From a virus (Duplodnaviria > Caudoviricetes), in the IMG/VR virus record IMGVR_UViG_3300016486_001578: a stretch of 64,000 bases of DNA; one strand, written 5' to 3'. Shown here in pieces: positions 599-9,883 of this stretch; the stretch's first letter is position 1, and each line of letters starts with the position of its first letter. The notes under the pieces were generated by a model, which saw only the letters and a list, made by a program, of their open reading frames with translations, was not told where the DNA came from and did not search any database. The translations under genes were made by a program, and so were the position numbers.

Positions 599-1324
599 AT
601 GACCCCACAACTAGAAAAAGTTTTCTTTAATTATATATTAAGGAATAAAAAATATTTCACAATAGTAAGTCCATTTTTCTTTCGAAATCCGGAGATACAG
701 TTTGTTTATGGGGTTATGATGAATTATATGAATAAATCATCTGAATCAAAAATACCAACACCAAGACAAATATTAGATATGGTGTCTCTGGAGGATAAGG
801 AGGGAAATGTAACAAAGGAGATATTAAAGTCCATACTTAAAATAGATCTAGAAGAATATAGTGAGAAAGATTTTATCTTACCTAAATTTAATGCTTGGGT
901 TTTATCAAATAGATTAAAAACAGGAACGGTTGATATAATAGAAGAAACTAGAAATTTAGAAAATATATCAGATTTCGATAAGGCGGTAGAAGCCGCAAAT
1001 AGAATAAAGGCTATTGTCGATGATATGTCTTCTACTAATTTTGTACAAGATGATGATTTAGGTTCTGATTTTGATGATCCAGATCATCATATGCAAGATT
1101 CTTCAAAATATAAAGTTCCTTGTGGATTTGAAACAATAGACCATATGCTAGGTGGTGGCTGGGATATACAAACATTGAACGTAATTATGGCTCAAACAAA
1201 CGGAGGAAAATGTTTTTTTAGTGATGGTGAGATAAATACTAGGAATATAAGCAATAAGGAAATAAAATCAATTAAAATAGGTAAAATTTTTACCAACATT
1301 AGCAAGGGACATACTAACATTTAA
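599..1324 (+). CDS. dnaB: Replicative helicase (T4 gp41/DnaB-like), N-terminal fragment fused to a 37-aa split-intein N-part
   Basis: GFETIDHMLGGG...LNVIMAQTNGGK (Walker A up to Lys) is followed at nt 1211 by CFFSDGEI (intein block A) and a stop 37 codons later. Confidence 0.9.
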   Translation: MTPQLEKVFFNYILRNKKYFTIVSPFFFRNPEIQFVYGVMMNYMNKSSESKIPTPRQILDMVSLEDKEGNVTKEILKSILKIDLEEYSEKDFILPKFNAWVLSNRLKTGTVDIIEETRNLENISDFDKAVEAANRIKAIVDDMSSTNFVQDDDLGSDFDDPDHHMQDSSKYKVPCGFETIDHMLGGGWDIQTLNVIMAQTNGGKCFFSDGEINTRNISNKEIKSIKIGKIFTNISKGHTNI

Positions 1325-1335
1325 TATATATTTAT

Positions 1336-2490
1336 ATGAATGCAAAGAAAAGATACAAGGATATAAATCTACCATTTATTTGTCCCATAAATAATAGGTC
1401 ATTTAACTCAACAAAAGGATTATCTGTTTATTTAACTAAAACACTAAAGACAGATCATAGTTTATATTATGATAAATATATAAACCACCGAGATTCTTCT
1501 TGTTTTTTCTGTGGAGAAAAAGGAAAGTTTATGTCGGCCGGTAAGGGATATAGAAATTTATGTAAAAACAAAGATTGTTTGAAAAAATCTATGAAATCAC
1601 ATTCGGTTGAGGGATTTATGTATAGAAACCTATGTTCTAAAGAAGAGGCCAAGATTTTGTTTGATGTTGAAAACGAAAGACAATTAAAGAAAAGGACAAA
1701 AACTGCTAATAAATTAAGAAAAAAAGATCCATTATGGGATAAAAAGAGAAGTAGAAATTGTAAAGAATTTTGGATAGAAAAGGGACTAACAGAAGAAGAA
1801 TCTATTATAAAAGCTAAAGAATCTATGGATGATATACACAAAAAAACATCTATTATTTTTGAATCAAATCCAAAGAAATATGCTTCTAAATATAACACAA
1901 AGATAGAATATTATTTAAAGAGAGGTCACTCTGAGGAAGAATCTTTGAATATTTTATCCGAGAGACAATCTACATTTTCTTTAAATAAATGTATAAAAGG
2001 ACATGGTGATAAAGTAGGAACCAAAATTTGGTTAAAAAGACAAGAAAAATGGCAAAAATCATTATCTGAAAATGGTAATATAAAAGGTGGTTATTCGAAA
2101 ATAAGTCAAATATTATTTTATGATATTTTAAAACATTTTGAGATAATAGAAAGAGACTCTATATTCTTTTGGACAAAGAATAAAGAACACCTTATAAAGT
2201 CTGATAAAAAAATATATTTATATGATTATACTGATACTAATAGAAAAAAAATAATAGAGTATAATGGTGATCAATATCACGCAAATCCGAGTATATACGA
2301 AGCCAATAGTTATCCGCATCCATATCACAAGAGTAATAAATATAGAGCAGTTGATATATGGGAAAGAGATAGAAATAAAATAAAATTAGCAGAAAATAAT
2401 GGATATGAAGTACTCGTTGTGTGGGATTCGGATTATAGAAAAAATAAAAAAGAAATAGTACAAAAATGCTTAAACTTTTTAAACAGTTAA
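1336..2490 (+). CDS. Free-standing putative homing endonuclease (Zn-binding N-terminus, repeats, Vsr-like C-terminal nuclease)
   Basis: It sits between the helicase halves and has CPI/CFFC motifs, F/YxxxxG(L/H)xEEES repeats and C-terminal YDY...IIEYNGDQYH...GYEVLVVWDSD. Confidence 0.8.
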   Translation: MNAKKRYKDINLPFICPINNRSFNSTKGLSVYLTKTLKTDHSLYYDKYINHRDSSCFFCGEKGKFMSAGKGYRNLCKNKDCLKKSMKSHSVEGFMYRNLCSKEEAKILFDVENERQLKKRTKTANKLRKKDPLWDKKRSRNCKEFWIEKGLTEEESIIKAKESMDDIHKKTSIIFESNPKKYASKYNTKIEYYLKRGHSEEESLNILSERQSTFSLNKCIKGHGDKVGTKIWLKRQEKWQKSLSENGNIKGGYSKISQILFYDILKHFEIIERDSIFFWTKNKEHLIKSDKKIYLYDYTDTNRKKIIEYNGDQYHANPSIYEANSYPHPYHKSNKYRAVDIWERDRNKIKLAENNGYEVLVVWDSDYRKNKKEIVQKCLNFLNS

Positions 2491-2494
2491 ATAA

Positions 2495-2527
2495 AAAAAG
2501 AGACAAATATAAAATTTGTCTCTTTTT
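2495..2527. terminator. Bidirectional intrinsic terminator between convergent ORFs
   Basis: Inverted repeat aaaaagagacaaat / atttgtctcttttt with A- and T-tracts. Confidence 0.75.
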
Positions 2528-2536
2528 ATTATTTAC

Positions 2537-2737
2537 TTATTTATCTAATTTATTCAAAATAAAGGGAGTTGCTATCAATAATGCTATTGTAGATGGTATA
2601 GTAAACCACATAGCAATTGGGAAATCTAAAACACTCTCTGAGCTAATTATTGTTGTTATTGTTAACAAACAGGCTATTAGTAAAATAGTGTATAGTACAT
2701 TTTTTTGAAAACTAAGGAATTCTTTTAACTTTTTCAT
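2537..2737 (-). CDS. Small two-TM membrane protein, antisense, inside the split helicase locus
   Basis: 66-aa ORF with two hydrophobic helices; TAATATATA motif upstream on the minus strand (2759-2767); terminator downstream. Confidence 0.6.
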   Translation of the reverse strand: MKKLKEFLSFQKNVLYTILLIACLLTITTIISSESVLDFPIAMWFTIPSTIALLIATPFILNKLDK

Positions 2738-2811
2738 ATCTTTAATATTTATTTTCTTTATATATTAAAAATTATAATCAAACAAATTATTAATATATTA
2801 TATAAATTAAT

Positions 2812-3981
2812 ATGTTAGATAATTATGAAATAATAGAAGCAGATTCTCTATTAGAAGGAAAATATGATAGACCACTATATGATAAATTTATTGAAGCTTA
2901 TGAAGTAGACAACTTAGAGGTTGATACACCAAATGGTTGGATAAAGATAGAAGGAATTGGTAAAACTATTGAATTTTATGAATGGGAAATACAAACATCT
3001 GGTGGAAAACATCTAATATGTGCAGATAAACATCTATTATATAGGTGTGATAATATGAATTTTTATAATAAAAAATGTGACATAACAGAAATATACTGCC
3101 AAGATTTGAATATAGGTGATTTTATAATGACTAAGGATGGTCCTGAGATGTTGATGGATATTTATAAAAATGGTAATAAATCGAATATGTATGATTTACA
3201 ATTATCAGAAGGCTCTAATAAACAATACTACACAAATGATATACTTAGTCATAATTCACTTTGGATGCAAAACTTTGCAGTTAGGTCTGCTGATCTTGGC
3301 TATAATGTACTTTACATTACGTTGGAAATGAATGAGCGAAAAGTTATGAAAAGGCTTGGTGCTATGAGATTGAAGATTCCTATAAATGATTATGATAAAA
3401 TGTCTAAAGATAGAGAATTTATAAAAAAGAGAATAAATTCACTTACTAAAAAAACTGGCGCAGTTGGTGGTGATTTGTTTGATAAAAAAATAGGTAAGAT
3501 AATTAGTAAATTCTGGGCTGCAGGAACTGCTAATATATCAGATTTTGATAATTACATTCAAGCACTAAAAGATAAGAGAGATATAAAAATAGATGTTATA
3601 ATAGTTGATTATATCGCTTTAATAGCACCAATTAAAGGTATTGGTTCTGATAGTCTTTATACTAAAGGGAAACAATTAGCAGAGGGTCTAAGAGCACTTG
3701 GTTCTAAATATATGTGTCCTGTTATAACTGGTGTGCAAGTGGCTAAGGATGCTTGGAACTCATCAGATATAACACTTGAGAGCGTACCTGAATCAAAAGC
3801 AATTGCAGAAACAGCAGATACATTCTTTTGTATAATAAGAACAGAAGAAATGAAAAGACAAAACTTATATAGATTTAAACTACTAAAACAAAGAGATGGT
3901 GATTTTTTAAGATCACAAATAAAATTAAACCTTAATCCAACCTTTTTGACTTTAGAGAAGGACGAATTTATAGATCAATAA
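2812..3981 (+). CDS. dnaB: 148-aa split-intein C-part fused to the C-terminal fragment of the helicase
   Basis: Hint motifs EVDTPNGW, CADKH, MYDL and YYTNDILSHN (ends 3255), then +1 Ser: SLWMQNFA...YITLEM...IIVDYI...SESKAIAETAD-type SF4 helicase motifs. Confidence 0.92.
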   Translation: MLDNYEIIEADSLLEGKYDRPLYDKFIEAYEVDNLEVDTPNGWIKIEGIGKTIEFYEWEIQTSGGKHLICADKHLLYRCDNMNFYNKKCDITEIYCQDLNIGDFIMTKDGPEMLMDIYKNGNKSNMYDLQLSEGSNKQYYTNDILSHNSLWMQNFAVRSADLGYNVLYITLEMNERKVMKRLGAMRLKIPINDYDKMSKDREFIKKRINSLTKKTGAVGGDLFDKKIGKIISKFWAAGTANISDFDNYIQALKDKRDIKIDVIIVDYIALIAPIKGIGSDSLYTKGKQLAEGLRALGSKYMCPVITGVQVAKDAWNSSDITLESVPESKAIAETADTFFCIIRTEEMKRQNLYRFKLLKQRDGDFLRSQIKLNLNPTFLTLEKDEFIDQ

Positions 3982-3998
3982 AAAATAAAATAGAATAT

Positions 3999-4895
<897 letters not shown>

Positions 4896-4987
4896 TCATA
4901 AAAAACCAATTAAAAACAAAAAACAACTATATCGGCTTATATTTTGAGTCAATATATATAGAACAAAAAAAATATAAAATATAAAAT

Positions 4988-6184
4988 ATGATAAAAGTTA
5001 TAAAGAGAAATGGTAAGAAGGAACCAGTTATGTTGGATAAAATCCTAGATAGAATAACACAACAAACATATGCGCTAGACAATAAATGGATTAGCCCATT
5101 TGATGTTGCACAAAAAGTTATAGCAGGAGTAGCTCCCAATATAAAAACATCTGTTTTGGATCAATTAGCAATGGAGACTGCTGCTTCTTTGGCTACCAAA
5201 CACCCAGATTATTCAATATTGGCCGCTAGATTGGCTATCACCGCATTACATAAAGAAACTAAAAAAAGCTTTTCTGATACGGTTAAGGATTTATATAAAT
5301 ACACAAATCCAATAACAGGCAAGAAAGCACCGATTGTGTCTAGGGAGTTTTATGAATTAGTAAAAGACAACAAAGATGAGTTAGATTCTGCTATCGTCCA
5401 TTCGAGAGACCATAATTTTGATTATTTTGGATACAAAACACTTGAGAAGTCCTATTTACTTAAAACAAACGGTAAAGTAGTTGAGAGACCACAATATATG
5501 TATATGAGAACTGCTTTACAAATATGGGGTGATAATTTAGAAAAAGTTAAATCGACTTATAACTTATTATCAGAGGGGTATTACACACATGCAACACCTA
5601 CTTTGTTTAATTCGGGCACCAATAGGCAACAATTATCTTCTTGTTTTTTATTAGATACAGAATCTGATTCTATTGAGGGTATTTTTAATACACTAAAAGA
5701 ATCTGCTCAAATATCTAAAAATGCTGGAGGAATTGGAATTTCTTTTAATAAAGTTAGAGCAAAGGGAACATATATTGCTGGTACTAATGGCTCATCAAAT
5801 GGTGTTATACCATTCTTGAAGATTTTTAATGAAACTGCTAGAGCGGTTGATCAATGCTTCACACCTGAGTCAAAAGTCATGACAGATAATGGTTTAGTAA
5901 ATATTGATGAAATTAAGAAAGGTGATTCCGTATTAACATCTGATGGTAAGTTTAATAAGGTTTTAGAAAGAAAAGAATTTATAAAAGATGAGGATTTTGT
6001 AGTAATTAAAACAAATAGTGGATTAAATAGGGTAACAAAAGAACACCAAATATTAGTTATTAGAAATCTATCAAAAGATATTGAAGACTCGGCTATTATA
6101 TTAGGTATAAAAAGTGGTGTATATAACATAGAATGGATATCTGCAAATGAACTATTAAAAAGTGATAAAATAGTAAAATATTAA
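4988..6184 (+). CDS. nrdA: Class I ribonucleotide reductase alpha, fragment 1 (ATP-cone to VDQ) plus 109-aa split-intein N-part
   Basis: VIKRNG ATP cone, ERPQ, ATPTLFNSG, LSSCF, GGIG, NETARAVDQ; then CFTPESKV... from nt 5855 with block B TKEH. Confidence 0.95.
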   Translation: MIKVIKRNGKKEPVMLDKILDRITQQTYALDNKWISPFDVAQKVIAGVAPNIKTSVLDQLAMETAASLATKHPDYSILAARLAITALHKETKKSFSDTVKDLYKYTNPITGKKAPIVSREFYELVKDNKDELDSAIVHSRDHNFDYFGYKTLEKSYLLKTNGKVVERPQYMYMRTALQIWGDNLEKVKSTYNLLSEGYYTHATPTLFNSGTNRQQLSSCFLLDTESDSIEGIFNTLKESAQISKNAGGIGISFNKVRAKGTYIAGTNGSSNGVIPFLKIFNETARAVDQCFTPESKVMTDNGLVNIDEIKKGDSVLTSDGKFNKVLERKEFIKDEDFVVIKTNSGLNRVTKEHQILVIRNLSKDIEDSAIILGIKSGVYNIEWISANELLKSDKIVKY

Positions 6185-6245
6185 TTTAATATATAGTAAT
6201 ATATACTTAGGTATATCCAAAATATATTAAATACTATTAAATAGA

Positions 6246-7148
6246 ATGATAAAGTTAACAAATGATATAGTTATAGAAAAGTTTATAAAAAAGCATGGAA
6301 ATAAATATATTTATAATTTAGTTGATTATAAAGGTGCAATTACTAAGGTTAGTATAATATGTAGAAAACATGGTTTATTTAAAATAACTCCAAATAGTCA
6401 TCTAAATGGAAGTGGATGTTATGAGTGTGGTAGAGAAAAAGTAAATGTATCAAGATTAACAAATAATGATAATTTTATAAGTAAATGTAAAATAATTCAT
6501 AATGATATTTATGACTATTCAAAAGTTGAATATAAAGGAATAAAAGAGTATGTTGTTATAATATGTAAAAGACACGGTGAATTTAAACAAAAGTCAGCAA
6601 AGCATCTACAGGGACAAGGTTGTAAAAGATGTAGTAATGAGAAAATGTTTGTTAATTTTGAAAAGATGTGTTTAGATAAATATTTAGGATACTCATATGG
6701 TGAAATGATATACAATGGTATGTATAATAAAATCATAATAACTTGTGAGAAACATGGTAATTTTGAAAAGACACCTATAGATTTTTATCACAAAGAAAGA
6801 CTTTGTCCAAAGTGTATAAATAGATGTAAGTCAAATGATGAAACAAAATGGTTAGATGAATTAAATATACCAATTGATAACAGAAATATCTATATAAAAT
6901 TTGGTAAAAAAACATTTTGTGTTGATGGAATAGACTATGATAATAAAGTAATATATGAATTCTATGGAGACTTCTTTCATGGGAATCCAAATGTTTATAA
7001 GAAAGATGACACTAATCCACTATTAAAGGAAACTTATGGTGAATTATATGATAAAACAATGAAGAAAGAAAAAATGATATTAGATAGTGGTTATAAGTTA
7101 GAAACTATCTGGGAAAGTGAATATAAAAAAGAAAAAAGAAAAATATGA
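6246..7148 (+). CDS. Free-standing putative homing endonuclease (CxxHG zinc-ribbon repeats plus Vsr-like nuclease)
   Basis: Three IxCxxHGxF...CxxC repeats; C-terminal VDG...IYEFYGDFFHGNP...GYKLETIWE; located between intein halves. Confidence 0.85.
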   Translation: MIKLTNDIVIEKFIKKHGNKYIYNLVDYKGAITKVSIICRKHGLFKITPNSHLNGSGCYECGREKVNVSRLTNNDNFISKCKIIHNDIYDYSKVEYKGIKEYVVIICKRHGEFKQKSAKHLQGQGCKRCSNEKMFVNFEKMCLDKYLGYSYGEMIYNGMYNKIIITCEKHGNFEKTPIDFYHKERLCPKCINRCKSNDETKWLDELNIPIDNRNIYIKFGKKTFCVDGIDYDNKVIYEFYGDFFHGNPNVYKKDDTNPLLKETYGELYDKTMKKEKMILDSGYKLETIWESEYKKEKRKI

Positions 7149-8408
7149 GAGATGTAATTGAAAGTGGTACTGAGTGGATTGAAGATCCAGTAGATCTTAA
7201 CTTAGATATAGACAAATTAAGATTTGAAACTATTGAAGATTTAACAATAGAAGAAATAAAAAATCAAAAAGTATATGATTTGGAGGTTGAAAACCAACAT
7301 AATTATATTGTTGATGGACTTGGATTAGTTCACAACGGTGGAGGTAAATAAGCGTCTGCTTCCACTTTAAAAAATCTGGAGGATTGCTGGGAGTTCCTTA
7401 GAGTTATTAATACTACAACGTAAAGAGTGATCTTATGCGTGAATGTTTGAAAAATTAATAAATTGGATAATCAGCAGCCGAGCATCTTAGGGATAAGATG
7501 AAGGTTCAACGACTAATGTTAGTAATGTAGAAAACAAGAAAACAACACGAGTACCAGACACATATTTTATGTGAAGATATAGTCTAAACTTATATGAAAG
7601 TATAAGAGAATAGGATAAAGAGCCTATTGTTAATACACAAATGAAACGCAAAGGAAGTATTGCTATTTATTTAGAGCCTTGGCACGCAGATGTTATGGAC
7701 TTTTTGGACCTTCGTAAAAACCAAGGTAAAGAAGAATTAAGAGCAAGAGATTTATTTTTGGCTATGTGGGTTAATGATCTATTTATGGAGAGAGTTGATT
7801 TAGATGAAGATTGGGCTTTGATGTGTCCGAATGAGTGTGATGGCCTTAATGAAACATATGGTGAAGAATTTAGAGAACTTTATATGAAATATGAAAGTGA
7901 AGGAAGATATAAAAAGGTAGTAAAGGCTAGGGATGTTTGGAATAAAATATTAGAATCACAAATTGAAACTGGTACTCCTTATATGTTATATAAAGATTCT
8001 ATTAACAGAAAATCAAACCAAAAAAACATAGGAATTATTAGAAGTTCTAATCTTTGTTTAGATGGTGATACTATAGTAGAATGTAGAGTCAATGGACTTG
8101 AAAGTGAATTAACAATGGTACAAATTGATGAAATCTTTAAATCTGGGCAAGAGATAGAAGTCTTAAGTATGGATGTTGCGACTGGTTTAAATGAATGGTG
8201 TTTAGTTGATAATTCAGGAATGACCAACAATGATGCTGAAACTATTAAAATAACCGATGAAGAAAATAACACTATTATATGCACACCAGAACATAAAGTA
8301 TGGACTAGTAATAGAGGTTATGTTATGGCTAAAAATTTAGTAGAGACAGATGAGTTAAAAATCAATAAAAAGTCGATTGTTGACAAAGGGTTATATACCT
8401 ATCTATAA
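7145..8408 (+). CDS. nrdA: NrdA fragment 2, spliced join(7145..7345,7644..8408): 64-aa IntC + GGGKRKGS...SSNL + 117-aa IntN
   Basis: VYDLEV...LVHN|GGG; intron removal restores [17 protein letters not shown] in frame; ETGTPY, SSNL, then CLDGDT...CTPEH from nt 8055. Confidence 0.88.
7346..7643 (+). ncRNA. Group I self-splicing intron (ORF-less, phage IA-like), 298 nt
   Basis: P ATTGCTGGGA 7383, Q AATCAGCAG 7469, R GTTCAACGACTA 7504, S AAGATATAGTCT 7574. P1 is exon GTGGAGGT paired with GCTTCCAC (7358-7365) with a U-G at the 5' splice site; P3 TCTGG/CCAGA; P7 GACTA/TAGTC; terminal G7643; P10 GCGT/ACGC. Confidence 0.93.
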
Positions 8409-8515
8409 AGAAGATTGGGAAAATAAATTTAAAAACAAAAAGGAAGAAATAATAAAGTTTCTTAAAAATTATAAAATTGTAAAAAATCAATATACAAAAA
8501 AAAATAAAGAATAGC

Positions 8516-9883
8516 ATGTTAAAAATAGAAAAAGTAAAAAATAGACCGGTTTATGATATAACCGTTAATAAAAATCATAACTTTTATGCTAACGATATAC
8601 TAGTACATAACTGTGCTGAGATTGTAGAAGCAACTGGAATTACTAAATCACAAAAAGATATTCTTAATAATAAGGAGTTATTAGATAGCTTGGGGTTGTC
8701 TGAATTTTATGGAAGAGAATCAGTTAATGAGACTGCGGTTTGTAACTTAGCATCTATTGCACTTCCTAAGTTTGTTAATAAAAACAAAACATATAACTTT
8801 AAGAAATTATATGATGTTGCTTATAATGCGGTTATTAATTTAAATAATGTTATTGATACAAATTATTATCCATCAGAATCTGCTAAATTTTCTAATATAT
8901 TACATAGACCAATTGGATTAGGAGTTCAAGGACTATCAGATGTTTTCTTTATGAGTGGATTTGCTTATGATTCTGAACAAGCCAAACATTTAAATAAAGA
9001 AATATTCGAAACGATATATTATGCATCCATTAAGGCTTCTTGTGACTTAGCAAAAGTTGATGGTGCTTATACAACATATGAAGGTTCTCCTATGTCGGAG
9101 GGTAAGTTCCAATTTGATTTATGGAATGTTACTCCAACTAAGAGGTGGGATTGGGATAAACTTAGACTAGAAGTTTTAGAATATGGTGTTAGAAATTCAC
9201 TAACTGGTTGTATTATGCCAACTGCATCAACTGCTAATATACTTGGTAATGAGGCCTCTTGTGAAGTACAGACATCAAATATGTATACAAGAGGTGTCTT
9301 ATCTGGAACTTTTATTTTAGTTAATAAATACTTAGTTAAAGAATTAGTTAAATTAGGAATATGGGATGATAATATTAGAAGAAAGATAATTTCTGAAAAT
9401 GGATCGGTACAGAATATTCCAGAAATACCAACGAATTTAAAGGAAGTATTTAAAACGGCATATGAAATAAAACAAAAAAATGTTATTGATATGGCGGCTG
9501 ATAGAGGAGCATTTGTTGATCAAACACAATCTATGAATATTTTCATGGATTCTCCAAACTTTGCTAAATTAACTGCTATGCATTTCCATGGTTGGGGTAG
9601 AAGAAGTTTTATGAGAGCTGATGATGGTTCTCCTATTTTGCCTAAAAACAAGGATATAAAGGTAGTTTATGATAAAGATGGAAATCCTAGATTTTATAAA
9701 GATGAGAGAAATTCATTAAAAACTGGTATGTATTATCTTAGAAATAAAGCTAAATCTGATGCTGTTAAATTTACGGTTCAAGATGATAAAAACGTTGAAG
9801 ACCAAGTTTCTGATCTAGAAACACAGATGTCTGATATTGCTTGTAGCCTTGATGATGAAGATTGTCTTGCTTGTGGGTCATAA
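8516..9883 (+). CDS. nrdA: 32-aa split-intein C-part plus NrdA fragment 3
   Basis: VYDITV...FYANDILVHN|CAEI, where +1 is the catalytic Cys of NLCxEI; VCNLASI, RPIGLGVQG, MPTAS, DQTQSMN, KTGMYYLR and C-terminal CLACGS. Confidence 0.95.
   Translation: MLKIEKVKNRPVYDITVNKNHNFYANDILVHNCAEIVEATGITKSQKDILNNKELLDSLGLSEFYGRESVNETAVCNLASIALPKFVNKNKTYNFKKLYDVAYNAVINLNNVIDTNYYPSESAKFSNILHRPIGLGVQGLSDVFFMSGFAYDSEQAKHLNKEIFETIYYASIKASCDLAKVDGAYTTYEGSPMSEGKFQFDLWNVTPTKRWDWDKLRLEVLEYGVRNSLTGCIMPTASTANILGNEASCEVQTSNMYTRGVLSGTFILVNKYLVKELVKLGIWDDNIRRKIISENGSVQNIPEIPTNLKEVFKTAYEIKQKNVIDMAADRGAFVDQTQSMNIFMDSPNFAKLTAMHFHGWGRRSFMRADDGSPILPKNKDIKVVYDKDGNPRFYKDERNSLKTGMYYLRNKAKSDAVKFTVQDDKNVEDQVSDLETQMSDIACSLDDEDCLACGS

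Follow-up and report, generated by a model that had tools for sequence, protein, structure and literature searches.

A class Ia nrdA gene of a salt-lake giant phage in three open reading frames with two predicted split inteins and a group I intron

Layout of the locus and the joined reductase

The nrdA gene of a salt-lake giant phage was found in three open reading frames, 4988-6184, 7145-8408, and 8516-9883, of the window (i.e. the whole 64-kb stretch of viral DNA that was analyzed). No second nrdA was present inside the window. The features of the locus are:

4988-5854, + strand: extein 1, NrdA residues 1-289, ending ...ARAVDQ (Pfam PF03477, PF00317, PF02867; tblastn)
5855-6184, + strand: IntN1, 109-aa N-terminal half of intein 1 (CFTPES...KIVKY, then stop) with Cys1 and block B VTKEH (Hint_2 and Hint matches; alignment)
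6246-7148, + strand: free-standing homing-endonuclease gene, 300 aa (phrog_681 "endonuclease", 3.8e-33; phrog_559)
7145-7336, + strand: IntC1, 64-aa C-terminal half of intein 1 with blocks F and G, ending ...GLVHN (Pfam Intein_splicing positions 125-155; alignment)
7337-7345, + strand: exon-1 extein codons GGT GGA GGT (Gly-Gly-Gly), the first being the +1 residue of intein 1 (sequence)
7346-7643, + strand: group I intron, 298 nt, no ORF (RF00028; covariation)
7644-8054, + strand: extein 2 (exon 2), KRKGS...SSNL, 137 aa (PF02867 positions 75-213, 1.2e-56)
8055-8408, + strand: IntN2, 117-aa N-terminal half of intein 2 with Cys1 (CLDGDT) and block B TPEH, then stop (Pfam Intein_splicing; alignment)
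8383-8514, + strand: remnant, 3' end of a GIY-YIG-like endonuclease gene (blastn against relative L003)
8516-8611, + strand: IntC2, 32-aa C-terminal half of intein 2, VYDITVNKNHNFYANDILVHN, ending ...ILVHN (TIGR01443 intein_Cterm; Pfam)
8612-9883, + strand: extein 3, CAEI...CLACGS (PF02867 positions 189-514, 7.8e-103)

The three exteins tiled the uninterrupted 850-aa NrdA of LR756502.1, a related huge phage with the same synteny as the window. They were placed by tblastn at residues 2-291 (82% identity for extein 1), 295-432, and 432-850, and the Gly codons at 7337-7345 supplied residues 292-294. When joined, they gave 852 codons without any frameshift or internal stop, and the GGG|KRKGS exon junction was in frame. 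Extein 1 comprised the ATP-cone, the all-alpha domain, and the start of the barrel (first 72 profile positions in Pfam). PF03477, PF00317, and PF02867 covered positions 1-514 over the three pieces, and TIGR02506 also matched. All hallmarks of a class Ia RNR alpha subunit were present: ATP-cone, all-alpha domain, ten-stranded barrel, N-x-C-x-E loop, and C-terminal Cys pair. Both SSNL|CAEI and CLACGS were found in the extein sequence, and the +1 Cys of extein 3 is the Cys of the active-site loop N-x-C-x-E. The first-pass annotation had described three separately translated pieces, halves of two different split inteins around a middle extein of about 140 aa, and exteins that together give an uninterrupted class I NrdA. 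All its coordinates held: the middle extein measured 140 aa once GGG was added to the exon 2 part, the intein halves were matched by Pfam, Hint, and TIGR01443 profiles and by alignments, and the joined product was collinear with the LR756502.1 NrdA and matched the Pfam RNR profiles.

The same annotation had raised sequencing error at the stop codons 6182-6184 and 8406-8408, which follow IntN1 and IntN2, as a possible flaw. Both stops occurred at the same places in six related viral contigs, and Logan contigs from other studies covered 5526-6301, 5873-6658, 6936-7936, 7417-8459, 7662-8445, and 7785-8443 with no differing letters. Because the six relatives and the independent Logan contigs reproduce them, the stops are genuine and not errors. 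Single-base omissions in one low-depth read set (X3) were disregarded. Read joints such as 5694/7802 and 7832/9107 were rejected as intein-less alleles; their sides were 21-31 letters long with 90% likeness, and they were taken for conserved RNR stretches from other organisms. A promoter and terminator scan gave results no better than those for shuffles, and no Shine-Dalgarno sequences were visible ahead of the nrdA pieces.

Inteins, intron, and endonuclease genes

Intein 2 (8055-8405 plus 8516-8611), which is unrelated to intein 1 and lies just ahead of the catalytic Cys, carried every class 1 feature: CLDGDT, TPEH, VYDI...NHNF, and VHN|C. IntC2 scored 37.2 bits on TIGR01443 intein_Cterm (cut-off 15.6), and the net charge of IntN2 was -12. 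The last ~20 residues of IntN2 were unlike those of the relatives, which is attributed to the adjacent deletion described below. Judged by its residues, intein 2 (SSNL|C...HN|CAEI) is canonical.

Intein 1 has the junctions VDQ|C...HN|GGG. It presented the class 1 motifs Cys1, block B T-x-x-H, block F Asp and His, and a C-terminal His-Asn, but its +1 residue was glycine instead of the Cys, Ser, or Thr of that class. Cys1 and the Thr and His of block B were invariant across aligned split copies of IntN1, as were the block F Asp, the terminal HN, and GGG across copies of IntC1 (net charge -12 in the window). The same Cys1, T/H, D, and HN residues were invariant in 13 contiguous mini-inteins of 32-44% identity. 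The window and each of the six relatives had HN|GGG, and a large metagenomic family of RNR inteins at the same site showed glycine at +1 in 67 of its 95 parsed cluster representatives, 64 of them with HN. Some contiguous Gly+1 inteins at the site carry endonuclease domains of at least 300 aa, and one contiguous relative, P0004, scored 44.2 bits on PF14890 (cut-off 35.8). Upon tblastn of intein 1 against 50,697 phage records, only LR756504.1 matched at this site, and no cultured phage did.

An AF2 model of a Gly+1 mini-intein adopted the HINT fold with a pLDDT of 90.6. Its nearest solved folds included the Clostridium thermocellum BIL domain 2lwy (rmsd 1.5 Å), 6y75, and gp41-1; a PDB sequence search with the mini-intein returned nothing useful. 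Complex prediction for IntN1 plus IntC1 gave 0.54 against 0.00 for the best control, which was rated "weak support" and may reflect likeness to solved split inteins. Of 80 solved complexes 58 reached the mark applied, as did 2 of 110 mismatches; at values of 0.60 or less, only 7 of the 80 and both mismatches did so. Contact agreement between runs was at least 92%, and partner pLDDT was at least 63.

The VDQ|GGG site lies in what we take to be the RNR specificity loop (loop 2). This loop relays specificity information between the effector and active sites. Splicing despite a non-nucleophilic residue at +1 is not known to have been demonstrated for any true intein. With Gly at +1, the canonical branched ester cannot form, and, going by the residues at the junction, standard trans-esterification is impossible for intein 1. 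Three ways around the glycine were considered and rejected. The boundary cannot be shifted, the extein being complete with no spare residue; no exon exists that an alternative 5' splice site could use to give a Ser or Cys codon at +1; and a downstream Ser as nucleophile would be without 1,2-amino-alcohol geometry. The likely fates of intein 1 are ligation of the BIL type (thioester, Asn cyclization, aminolysis) or cleavage leaving a nicked enzyme. No report on Gly+1 inteins was found in the literature, the library being limited and its silence weak evidence of absence.

The intron begins 9 nt downstream of the intein 1 junction, and an in-frame stop stands one codon into it, so that the ORF 7145-7351 without RNA splicing reads IntC1 followed by GGGK and a stop. 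The group I intron of the first-pass annotation was corroborated. A local scan with Rfam RF00028 gave 59.5 bits over model positions 1-253 (E = 1.1e-14; gathering score 50); scanning the whole window against Rfam at gathering thresholds, default filters on, returned no match. RNAalifold on six sequences yielded 79 pairs, of which 31 showed compensatory changes on both sides, located in P3, P5, P6, P8, P9, and P9.1. P1 (GGAGGU:GCUUCC), with the U.G pair at the 5' splice site, was invariant in its pairs in the six sequences, and its 5' strand GGAGGU lies within the exon-1 Gly codons. The internal guide GCUUCCAC was located at 7357-7364, the P10 guide GCGU at 7351-7354, and omega-G at 7643. With the splice sites dictated by P1 and P10, the reading frame and the conserved GGGKRKGS motif are both recovered exactly. 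An ATG at 7641-7643 is in frame with KRKGS; relatives L001 and L008 have CTG in its place at the 3' splice site, which leaves their exon 2 without its own start codon. An endonuclease-like ORF lies within the same intron in L003. Megablast matches of "95-99%" were set aside, as they came down to 39 nt of intron core shared with a crAss-like phage. From sequence and covariation, we regard 7346-7643 as a genuine group I intron and infer that it is spliced.

Both inteins have the layout of naturally split inteins in fractured genes. The halves of intein 1 lie in separate ORFs on one strand with the endonuclease gene 6246-7148 between them; those of intein 2 flank an endonuclease remnant. The 6246-7148 product has zinc-ribbon repeats and a C-terminal nuclease motif, E-x-x-G-D-x-x-H-x-N-P, and its C terminus is homologous to the endonuclease in the upstream fractured dnaB. 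Its stop overlaps the start of IntC1 (ATGA). Pfam and NCBIfam profiles left a Vsr or EDxHD fold unconfirmed, and searching PDB sequences with the endonuclease brought no useful match. The gene is present in L001 and L004 and absent from L003 and L007. Between IntN2 and IntC2 the relatives hold an intact GIY-YIG-like endonuclease gene. By blastn, window 8383-8620 matched L003 6671-6909 (82%), about 850 bp of L003 (5820-6670) corresponded to 57 bp in the window, and the ORF 8377-8514 matched the C terminus of the relatives' homing endonuclease. Deletion mapping thus indicates that the intein 2 endonuclease gene was deleted in the window, leaving a remnant.

Related genes and known systems

The arrangement is not unique to the window: nrdA is encoded in two, three, or four polypeptides in relatives, accompanied by the intron and as many as three split inteins. 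The related series spans none to four elements, with gain and loss of endonucleases, and an apparent hand-over of an endonuclease occurred between the intein and the intron 9 bp apart. Across related huge phages the elements form a presence/absence mosaic, of which the window shows one state. In interrupted alleles pN/pS was 0.04-0.17 for exteins, 0.10-0.53 for IntN1, 0.12-0.26 for IntC1, 0.15-0.30 for IntN2, and 0.03 for IntC2, the ratios being rough with dS near saturation. These values point to purifying selection on exteins and intein halves. Neither LR756504.1 nor a relative of 347 kb with a completeness rating of 100% had any PF02867 match besides the interrupted nrdA.

Dassa et al. (2009; PMC2677866) described the fractured genes NrdA-1 to NrdA-7, gp41, NrdJ, and IMPDH from the GOS metagenome. 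Like the window, these have N-extein-IntN, a free-standing endonuclease gene, and IntC-C-extein on one strand, with endonucleases of GIY-YIG and, putatively for the window, Vsr-like types common to both. The GOS NrdA site directly before the thiyl-radical Cys is that of intein 2; the charge pattern of intein 2, with a negative N-half and a positive C-half, is also that of GOS NrdA-2. In contrast to the single break per GOS locus, the window has two plus a group I intron and relatives have three; the endonuclease gene of intein 2 has been lost, and the loop-2 site with its Gly+1 junction is not among the GOS sites described (PMC2677866). In SPbeta, too, one phage RNR large-subunit gene requires RNA splicing plus protein splicing, but the intein there is contiguous within one polypeptide, whereas the window has split inteins, three polypeptides, and just 9 nt between the intron and an intein junction.

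The RNR alpha intein of Cafeteria roenbergensis virus (CroV), an InBase entry in the supplement of Green, Novikova and Belfort 2018 (PMC5784728), shares its insertion site and intein family with intein 1 (VNQ|CFTPDTP...NHNYLTSSGIVHN|). It differs in being contiguous with an endonuclease domain and in having Ser at +1 (SGRRKGS), which is canonical. Type A BIL domains, e.g. C. thermocellum BIL4 (Dassa 2004; Aranko, Oeemig and Iwai 2013, as cited in PMC4031507), resemble intein 1 in their HINT fold, Cys1, C-terminal His-Asn, and lack of a +1 nucleophile. BILs reside in variable bacterial surface or secreted proteins and are not mobile with homing endonucleases, unlike the intein 1 family, which occupies a conserved site of an essential enzyme. 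By sequence and host context intein 1 is not a type A BIL; it is allelic to the CroV intein, the modeled Gly+1 mini-intein is only 18% identical to 2lwy, and the Pfam call is Intein_splicing. In Aeromonas phage Aeh1, an endonuclease gene likewise interrupts nrdA, and separate chains, NrdA-a and NrdA-b, make up the enzyme, but without intein or ligation, short insertion-derived tails holding the chains (Crona et al. 2011; PMC3045599).

Proposed maturation and rival explanations

We give about even chances to the reading that a class Ia nrdA, colonized by three selfish elements, still works by means of RNA splicing, trans-splicing by intein 2, and BIL-like ligation by intein 1. The elements would be a split intein accompanied by an endonuclease gene within loop 2, a group I intron, and a second split intein devoid of an endonuclease. 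Self-splicing of the intron at 7345/7644 would yield a 321-aa middle chain, IntC1-GGGKRKGS...SSNL-IntN2. Canonical trans-splicing by intein 2, a reaction we infer from residues that are seen, would rebuild the N-x-C-x-E loop. Intein 1 would then unite chain 1 and the middle chain: Cys1 would form a thioester, cyclization of the terminal Asn would free H2N-GGG..., and this unhindered amine would attack the thioester. The product would be native VDQ-GGG, obtained by the route proposed for type A BIL domains. That aminolysis route is described in PMC4031507; for type A BILs such ligation has been proposed, and it has been demonstrated in trans using a BIL that was split artificially. The "two protein-level joining steps" of the first-pass annotation find no support in that form, as intein 1 is without Cys, Ser, or Thr at +1; its AVDQ-GGGKR junction is inaccessible to the canonical mechanism and needs BIL-like aminolysis, or is never formed. 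Unspliced mRNA would give a 68-aa IntC1-GGGK decoy, so enzyme yield should be limited by the efficiency of RNA splicing.

The step at intein 1 attracts the strongest competitor. RNA splicing and intein 2 ligation may occur while intein 1 never ligates, the active enzyme being nicked in loop 2 and held together non-covalently; intein 1 would dock the chains, let the barrel fold, and then cut at both junctions or stay attached. The exclusion of the canonical branch intermediate by Gly+1 speaks for it, and conservation of Cys1 and HN is expected equally if intein 1 merely cleaves both junctions, so dual cleavage fits it as well as ligation does. Cleavage products outweigh the spliced product in type A BILs (PMC4031507), and phage Aeh1 has an active NrdA made of two chains (PMC3045599; PMC2677866). 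Yet the Ser+1 allele of CroV shows that the family ligates when able, and Gly+1 in many contiguous inteins would make a permanent nick the rule over hundreds of lineages. The nick would, moreover, fall in a loop that general knowledge of class I RNR associates with specificity information. We consider a nicked enzyme unlikely, though a serious contender.

It is improbable that the gene is decaying under attack by selfish elements and no longer yields an active reductase, the phage using host RNR. The heavy load of such elements and the loss of one endonuclease gene would suit decay, and degeneration under intein load has been described for nrdA genes of Campylobacter phages (PMC3653736). Against it, pN is far below pS for all exteins and both inteins in interrupted alleles, the 852 extein codons are intact, the catalytic intein residues and the intron core are all conserved with compensatory intron changes, and the complete relative has no other RNR alpha. 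Less credible still is a locus without RNA splicing, in which the 298 nt would be a spacer, exon 2 would be translated from the ATG at 7641 to give four polypeptides, and IntC1-GGGK would be useless. The position of that ATG in the KRKGS frame and the failure of the whole-window Rfam scan are compatible with it. The local score above the gathering threshold, the compensatory changes in six helices, the exact return of the frame and of GGGKRKGS at the P1/P10 splice sites, CTG in place of ATG in L001 and L008, and the endonuclease-like ORF inside the L003 copy argue against it.

Returning to ligation at both inteins, the locus would be the first described natural gene to need one RNA splicing and two (in relatives, three) trans protein-joining steps, a natural counterpart to engineered multi-fragment ligation with orthogonal split inteins; the literature searched, limited and weak as evidence of absence, gave no report of a natural gene with two split inteins, or with several plus an intron. 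Somewhat short of even, in our estimate, is the chance that intein 1 is a natural split intein ligating to an N-terminal Gly without a side-chain nucleophile, within a three- or four-fragment ligation gated by RNA self-splicing. If such ligation is true, true inteins would gain a fourth mechanistic class and protein ligation a tool that leaves no scar, and the Cys/Ser/Thr junction requirement, the main scar of intein technology, could be lifted. With its two chains, the Gly+1 split intein is a clean system in which to ask if ligation by true inteins can proceed in the absence of a C-extein nucleophile. Output of phage RNR would depend on intron splicing efficiency, a possible regulatory point. 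The relatives' series displays the life cycle of these elements within one gene.

Architecture of the three-piece nrdA gene

The three nrdA pieces claimed in the first-pass annotation matched the ORF list of the window exactly, and the elements of the locus are listed here.

Elements of the nrdA locus in the window
4988-6184: piece 1, encoding the ATP-cone, the all-alpha domain and RNR barrel profile positions 1-72, then an N-intein
End of piece 1, after ...NETARAVDQ: IntN1, a Hint-type N-intein of 109 aa with Cys as its first residue
6246-7148: endonuclease gene, 300 aa, matching phrog_681 (3.8e-33)
7145-7351: IntC1 ORF, a 64-aa intein C-half with VHN at its end, followed by GGGK and a stop
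7644 to 8408: extein 2, KRKGS...SSNL (barrel positions 75-213), then the second N-intein, IntN2 (CLDGDT...)
8516-9883: piece 3, a 32-aa C-intein ending VHN, then CAEI...CLACGS (barrel positions 189-514)

The stop of the endonuclease gene overlaps the start of the IntC1 ORF. In a related huge phage, LR756502.1, nrdA is uninterrupted (850 aa) and its gene order is that of the window (DnaB C-terminus, acidic protein, nrdA). Its NrdA tiled the window exteins with residues 2-291, 295-432, and 432-850, and the gap in this tiling is closed by the three Gly codons at 7337-7345 of the window. As had been proposed, conceptual joining of the exteins yielded an uninterrupted NrdA of 852 codons, collinear with the LR756502.1 protein. 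The stops ending pieces 1 and 2, which the proposal needed to be genuine, are no sequencing errors: the same stop positions were found in six viral contigs retrieved via IntC1 and in LR756504.1, and salt-lake metagenome contigs from other studies covered both stops and the whole intron with zero differing letters.

The group I intron postulated within the middle piece was missed by an Rfam scan of the whole window and was detected by a local scan (RF00028, full model, E = 1.1e-14, 59.5 bits where the gathering score is 50). In P1, GGAGGU at the exon end pairs with GCUUCC (7357-7362), and the splice site carries a U.G pair; P10 can form between GCGU (7351-7354) and ACGC of exon 2, and G7643 is the omega-G. 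RNAalifold analysis of this intron and those of five relatives gave 79 pairs; compensatory changes affected 31 of these and were located in P3, P5, P6, P8, P9, and P9.1. Intron sequence and covariation predict RNA splicing at 7345/7644, a join that restores GGG/KRKGS, the conserved loop motif, in frame. The intron 3' end includes the ATG at 7641; because the related loci L001 and L008 have CTG instead, exon 2 is no independent gene there. Within the intron core, 39 nt at 7571-7609 (P7/P9 region) match a segment of the crAss-like phage cr108_1 at 97% identity, and the core is ~74% identical to introns of Staphylococcus epidermidis phages.

Fractured genes with split inteins (Dassa 2009, PMC2677866), an intron plus an intein in one phage RNR gene (SPbeta), and a CroV-type intein at the loop-2 site (PMC5784728) are known, as is BIL chemistry (PMC4031507). 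Our literature search found no paper on a natural gene combining two or three split inteins with an intron, and none on a true intein followed by Gly.

Glycine at the intein 1 junction

Canonical protein splicing requires Cys, Ser, or Thr at +1. Of the two protein-level joinings that had been claimed, the one at intein 2 is predicted to be canonical, since its residues (Cys1, TPEH, VYDI...NHNF, VHN, and the catalytic Cys at +1) are those of a textbook intein. Intein 1, however, lacks the canonical nucleophile. Its C-terminal junction is HN/GGG, and the first C-extein residue is Gly because the extein is complete without a spare residue.

The HN/GGG junction was invariant in six of six relatives and was also present in P0004, a metagenomic full-length NrdA with a contiguous mini-intein and no intron. 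An exhaustive HMMER search with the P0004 intein and its flanks retrieved 460 cluster representatives (E ≤1e-10). Among the best 150 of these, 95 could be parsed: 67 had Gly+1 (59 of them with Cys1 and 64 with HN) and 28 had Ser+1. All ten representatives looked up were metagenomic. The loop-2 inteins of RNR alpha (P0004-P0154) form a very large family with a Gly majority (GGGKR, GGKR) and a Ser minority (SGKR, CroV type), comprising mini-inteins of 129-180 aa and endonuclease-domain forms of 300-450 aa. The published CroV intein, VNQ/CFTPDTP...GIVHN/SGRRKGS, is of the Ser+1 type (PMC5784728, supplement 3). Thirteen mini-inteins sharing 32-44% identity showed no variation at Cys1, at Phe2, at Thr and His of block B, at Asp of block F, or at the terminal His-Asn, which indicates selection on the chemistry of both thioester formation and Asn cyclisation. 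The model of one Gly+1 mini-intein (pLDDT 90.6) matched HINT structures, including a BIL domain of C. thermocellum (2lwy, rmsd 1.5 Å), Tetrahymena BUBL BIL2, and the gp41-1 intein; these rank too closely for the model to prove that BILs are its particular kin.

Type A BIL domains likewise lack a +1 nucleophile (PMC4031507, citing Dassa 2004 and Aranko 2013); their ligation is proposed to proceed through thioester formation, Asn cyclisation, and attack by the freed amine, although cleavage products predominate. By analogy, intein 1 would form the thioester, cyclise its Asn, and be resolved by attack of the freed Gly amine, and such BIL-type ligation seems the most likely course. Gly-Gly-Gly at an N-terminus offers the least hindered amine there can be, and a nucleophile of this kind also resolves the sortase thioester. 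The main rival is that intein 1 cleaves at both junctions; the enzyme would then carry a nick in loop 2, and its chains would stay together non-covalently. A non-covalent two-chain precedent exists in Aeh1 NrdA (PMC3045599). BIL-type ligation and dual cleavage are not told apart by the conservation of Cys1 and HN, which is compatible with both.

With regard to pairing of the halves, the N-halves of inteins 1 and 2 shared merely 17-21% identity. Intein 2 occupies the same insertion site as the GOS fractured NrdA genes (PMC2677866) and has a charge pattern in common with them (N-half -12, C-half +2). IntC1 carries a net charge of -12, so its pairing with IntN2 inside the middle chain looks disfavoured. 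Complex prediction for IntN1 plus IntC1 scored 0.54 (best control 0.00), with contact agreement of at least 92% between runs and partner pLDDT of at least 63. It was rated as weak support. Of 80 solved complexes, 58 reached the mark, as did 2 of 110 mismatches; at ≤0.60 there were only 7 of the 80 plus both mismatches. The score may stem from likeness to solved split inteins.

Mosaic of interruptions and probable use of the gene

Judged by sequence, with element presence scored against the uninterrupted gene, the nrdA interruptions in the relatives form a mosaic.

Interruptions of nrdA in the window and in related viral loci (L001, L003-L008)
L001, L008: intein 1 and intron present, inteins 2 and 3 absent; 2 chains
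Window: intein 1, intron, and intein 2 present, intein 3 absent; 3 chains
L006, L007: intein 1, intron, and intein 3 present, intein 2 absent; 3 chains
L004, L005: intein 1, intron, intein 2, and intein 3 all present; 4 chains
L003: intein 1, intron, and intein 2 present, N-half of intein 3 seen before the contig ends; 4 chains, the last piece off the contig

Intein 3, a third split intein (L003 7519-7854; L004 6882-7244; L007 5511-5846 and 7482-7560), sits at MPTAS/TAS(I/A)LGNE and comes with a large endonuclease gene of its own, which encodes 541 aa in L007. L004 derives from a 201-kb record that contains all four extein pieces and hence a four-polypeptide nrdA. Two relatives of piece 1, P0001 and P0002 (817 and 819 aa), bear an extra contiguous LAGLIDADG-type intein (QLSS/C...AEN/CFL) at the redox-pair Cys, with the same split IntN1 following downstream; this site, SS/CFLL, is a fourth intein position in this nrdA lineage.

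Endonuclease genes come and go across the relatives. The one between the intein 1 halves is missing from L003 and L007. For intein 2, L003 and L004 have the gene intact; in the window it is deleted, ~850 bp being replaced by 57 bp, and the endonuclease 3' end remains at 8383-8514. In L003, the P5-P6 region of the intron houses a 206-aa endonuclease-like ORF (4279-4896) with a zinc finger, an HTH, and a C-terminal E-x-D-G-x-x-H motif. There the intron has the ORF and the split intein 9 bp upstream lacks an endonuclease gene, whereas the window shows the reverse, which suggests that a single nuclease serves both neighbours.

In the interrupted alleles, pN was far below pS. The ratios, which are rough because dS is near saturation, were 0.04-0.17 for the exteins, 0.10-0.53 for IntN1, 0.12-0.26 for IntC1, 0.15-0.30 for IntN2, and 0.03 for IntC2. 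No second nrdA copy was found within the 64-kb window, and the interrupted gene accounted for the only PF02867 matches both in LR756504.1 and in a relative of 347 kb with a completeness rating of 100%.

Neighbouring genes

A conserved 298-aa protein (3999-4895) with a poly-Asp/Glu N-terminus and the C-terminus ...KYNLNKLNNIDFL had zero Pfam or PHROG matches; all relatives have it between dnaB and nrdA. Upstream, the replicative helicase gene (DnaB/gp41-like, 599-3981) is likewise fractured by a split intein, which is atypical in that its N-half is short and its C-half long.

Elements of the helicase locus in the window
599-1324: helicase N-piece, ending ...TNGGK/CFFSDGE..., with a short N-intein of ~35 aa
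1336-2490: endonuclease, 384 aa, with 30% C-terminal identity to the nrdA endonuclease
2812-3981: helicase C-piece, opening with a C-intein of ~147 aa that ends SHN/SLWMQNF...
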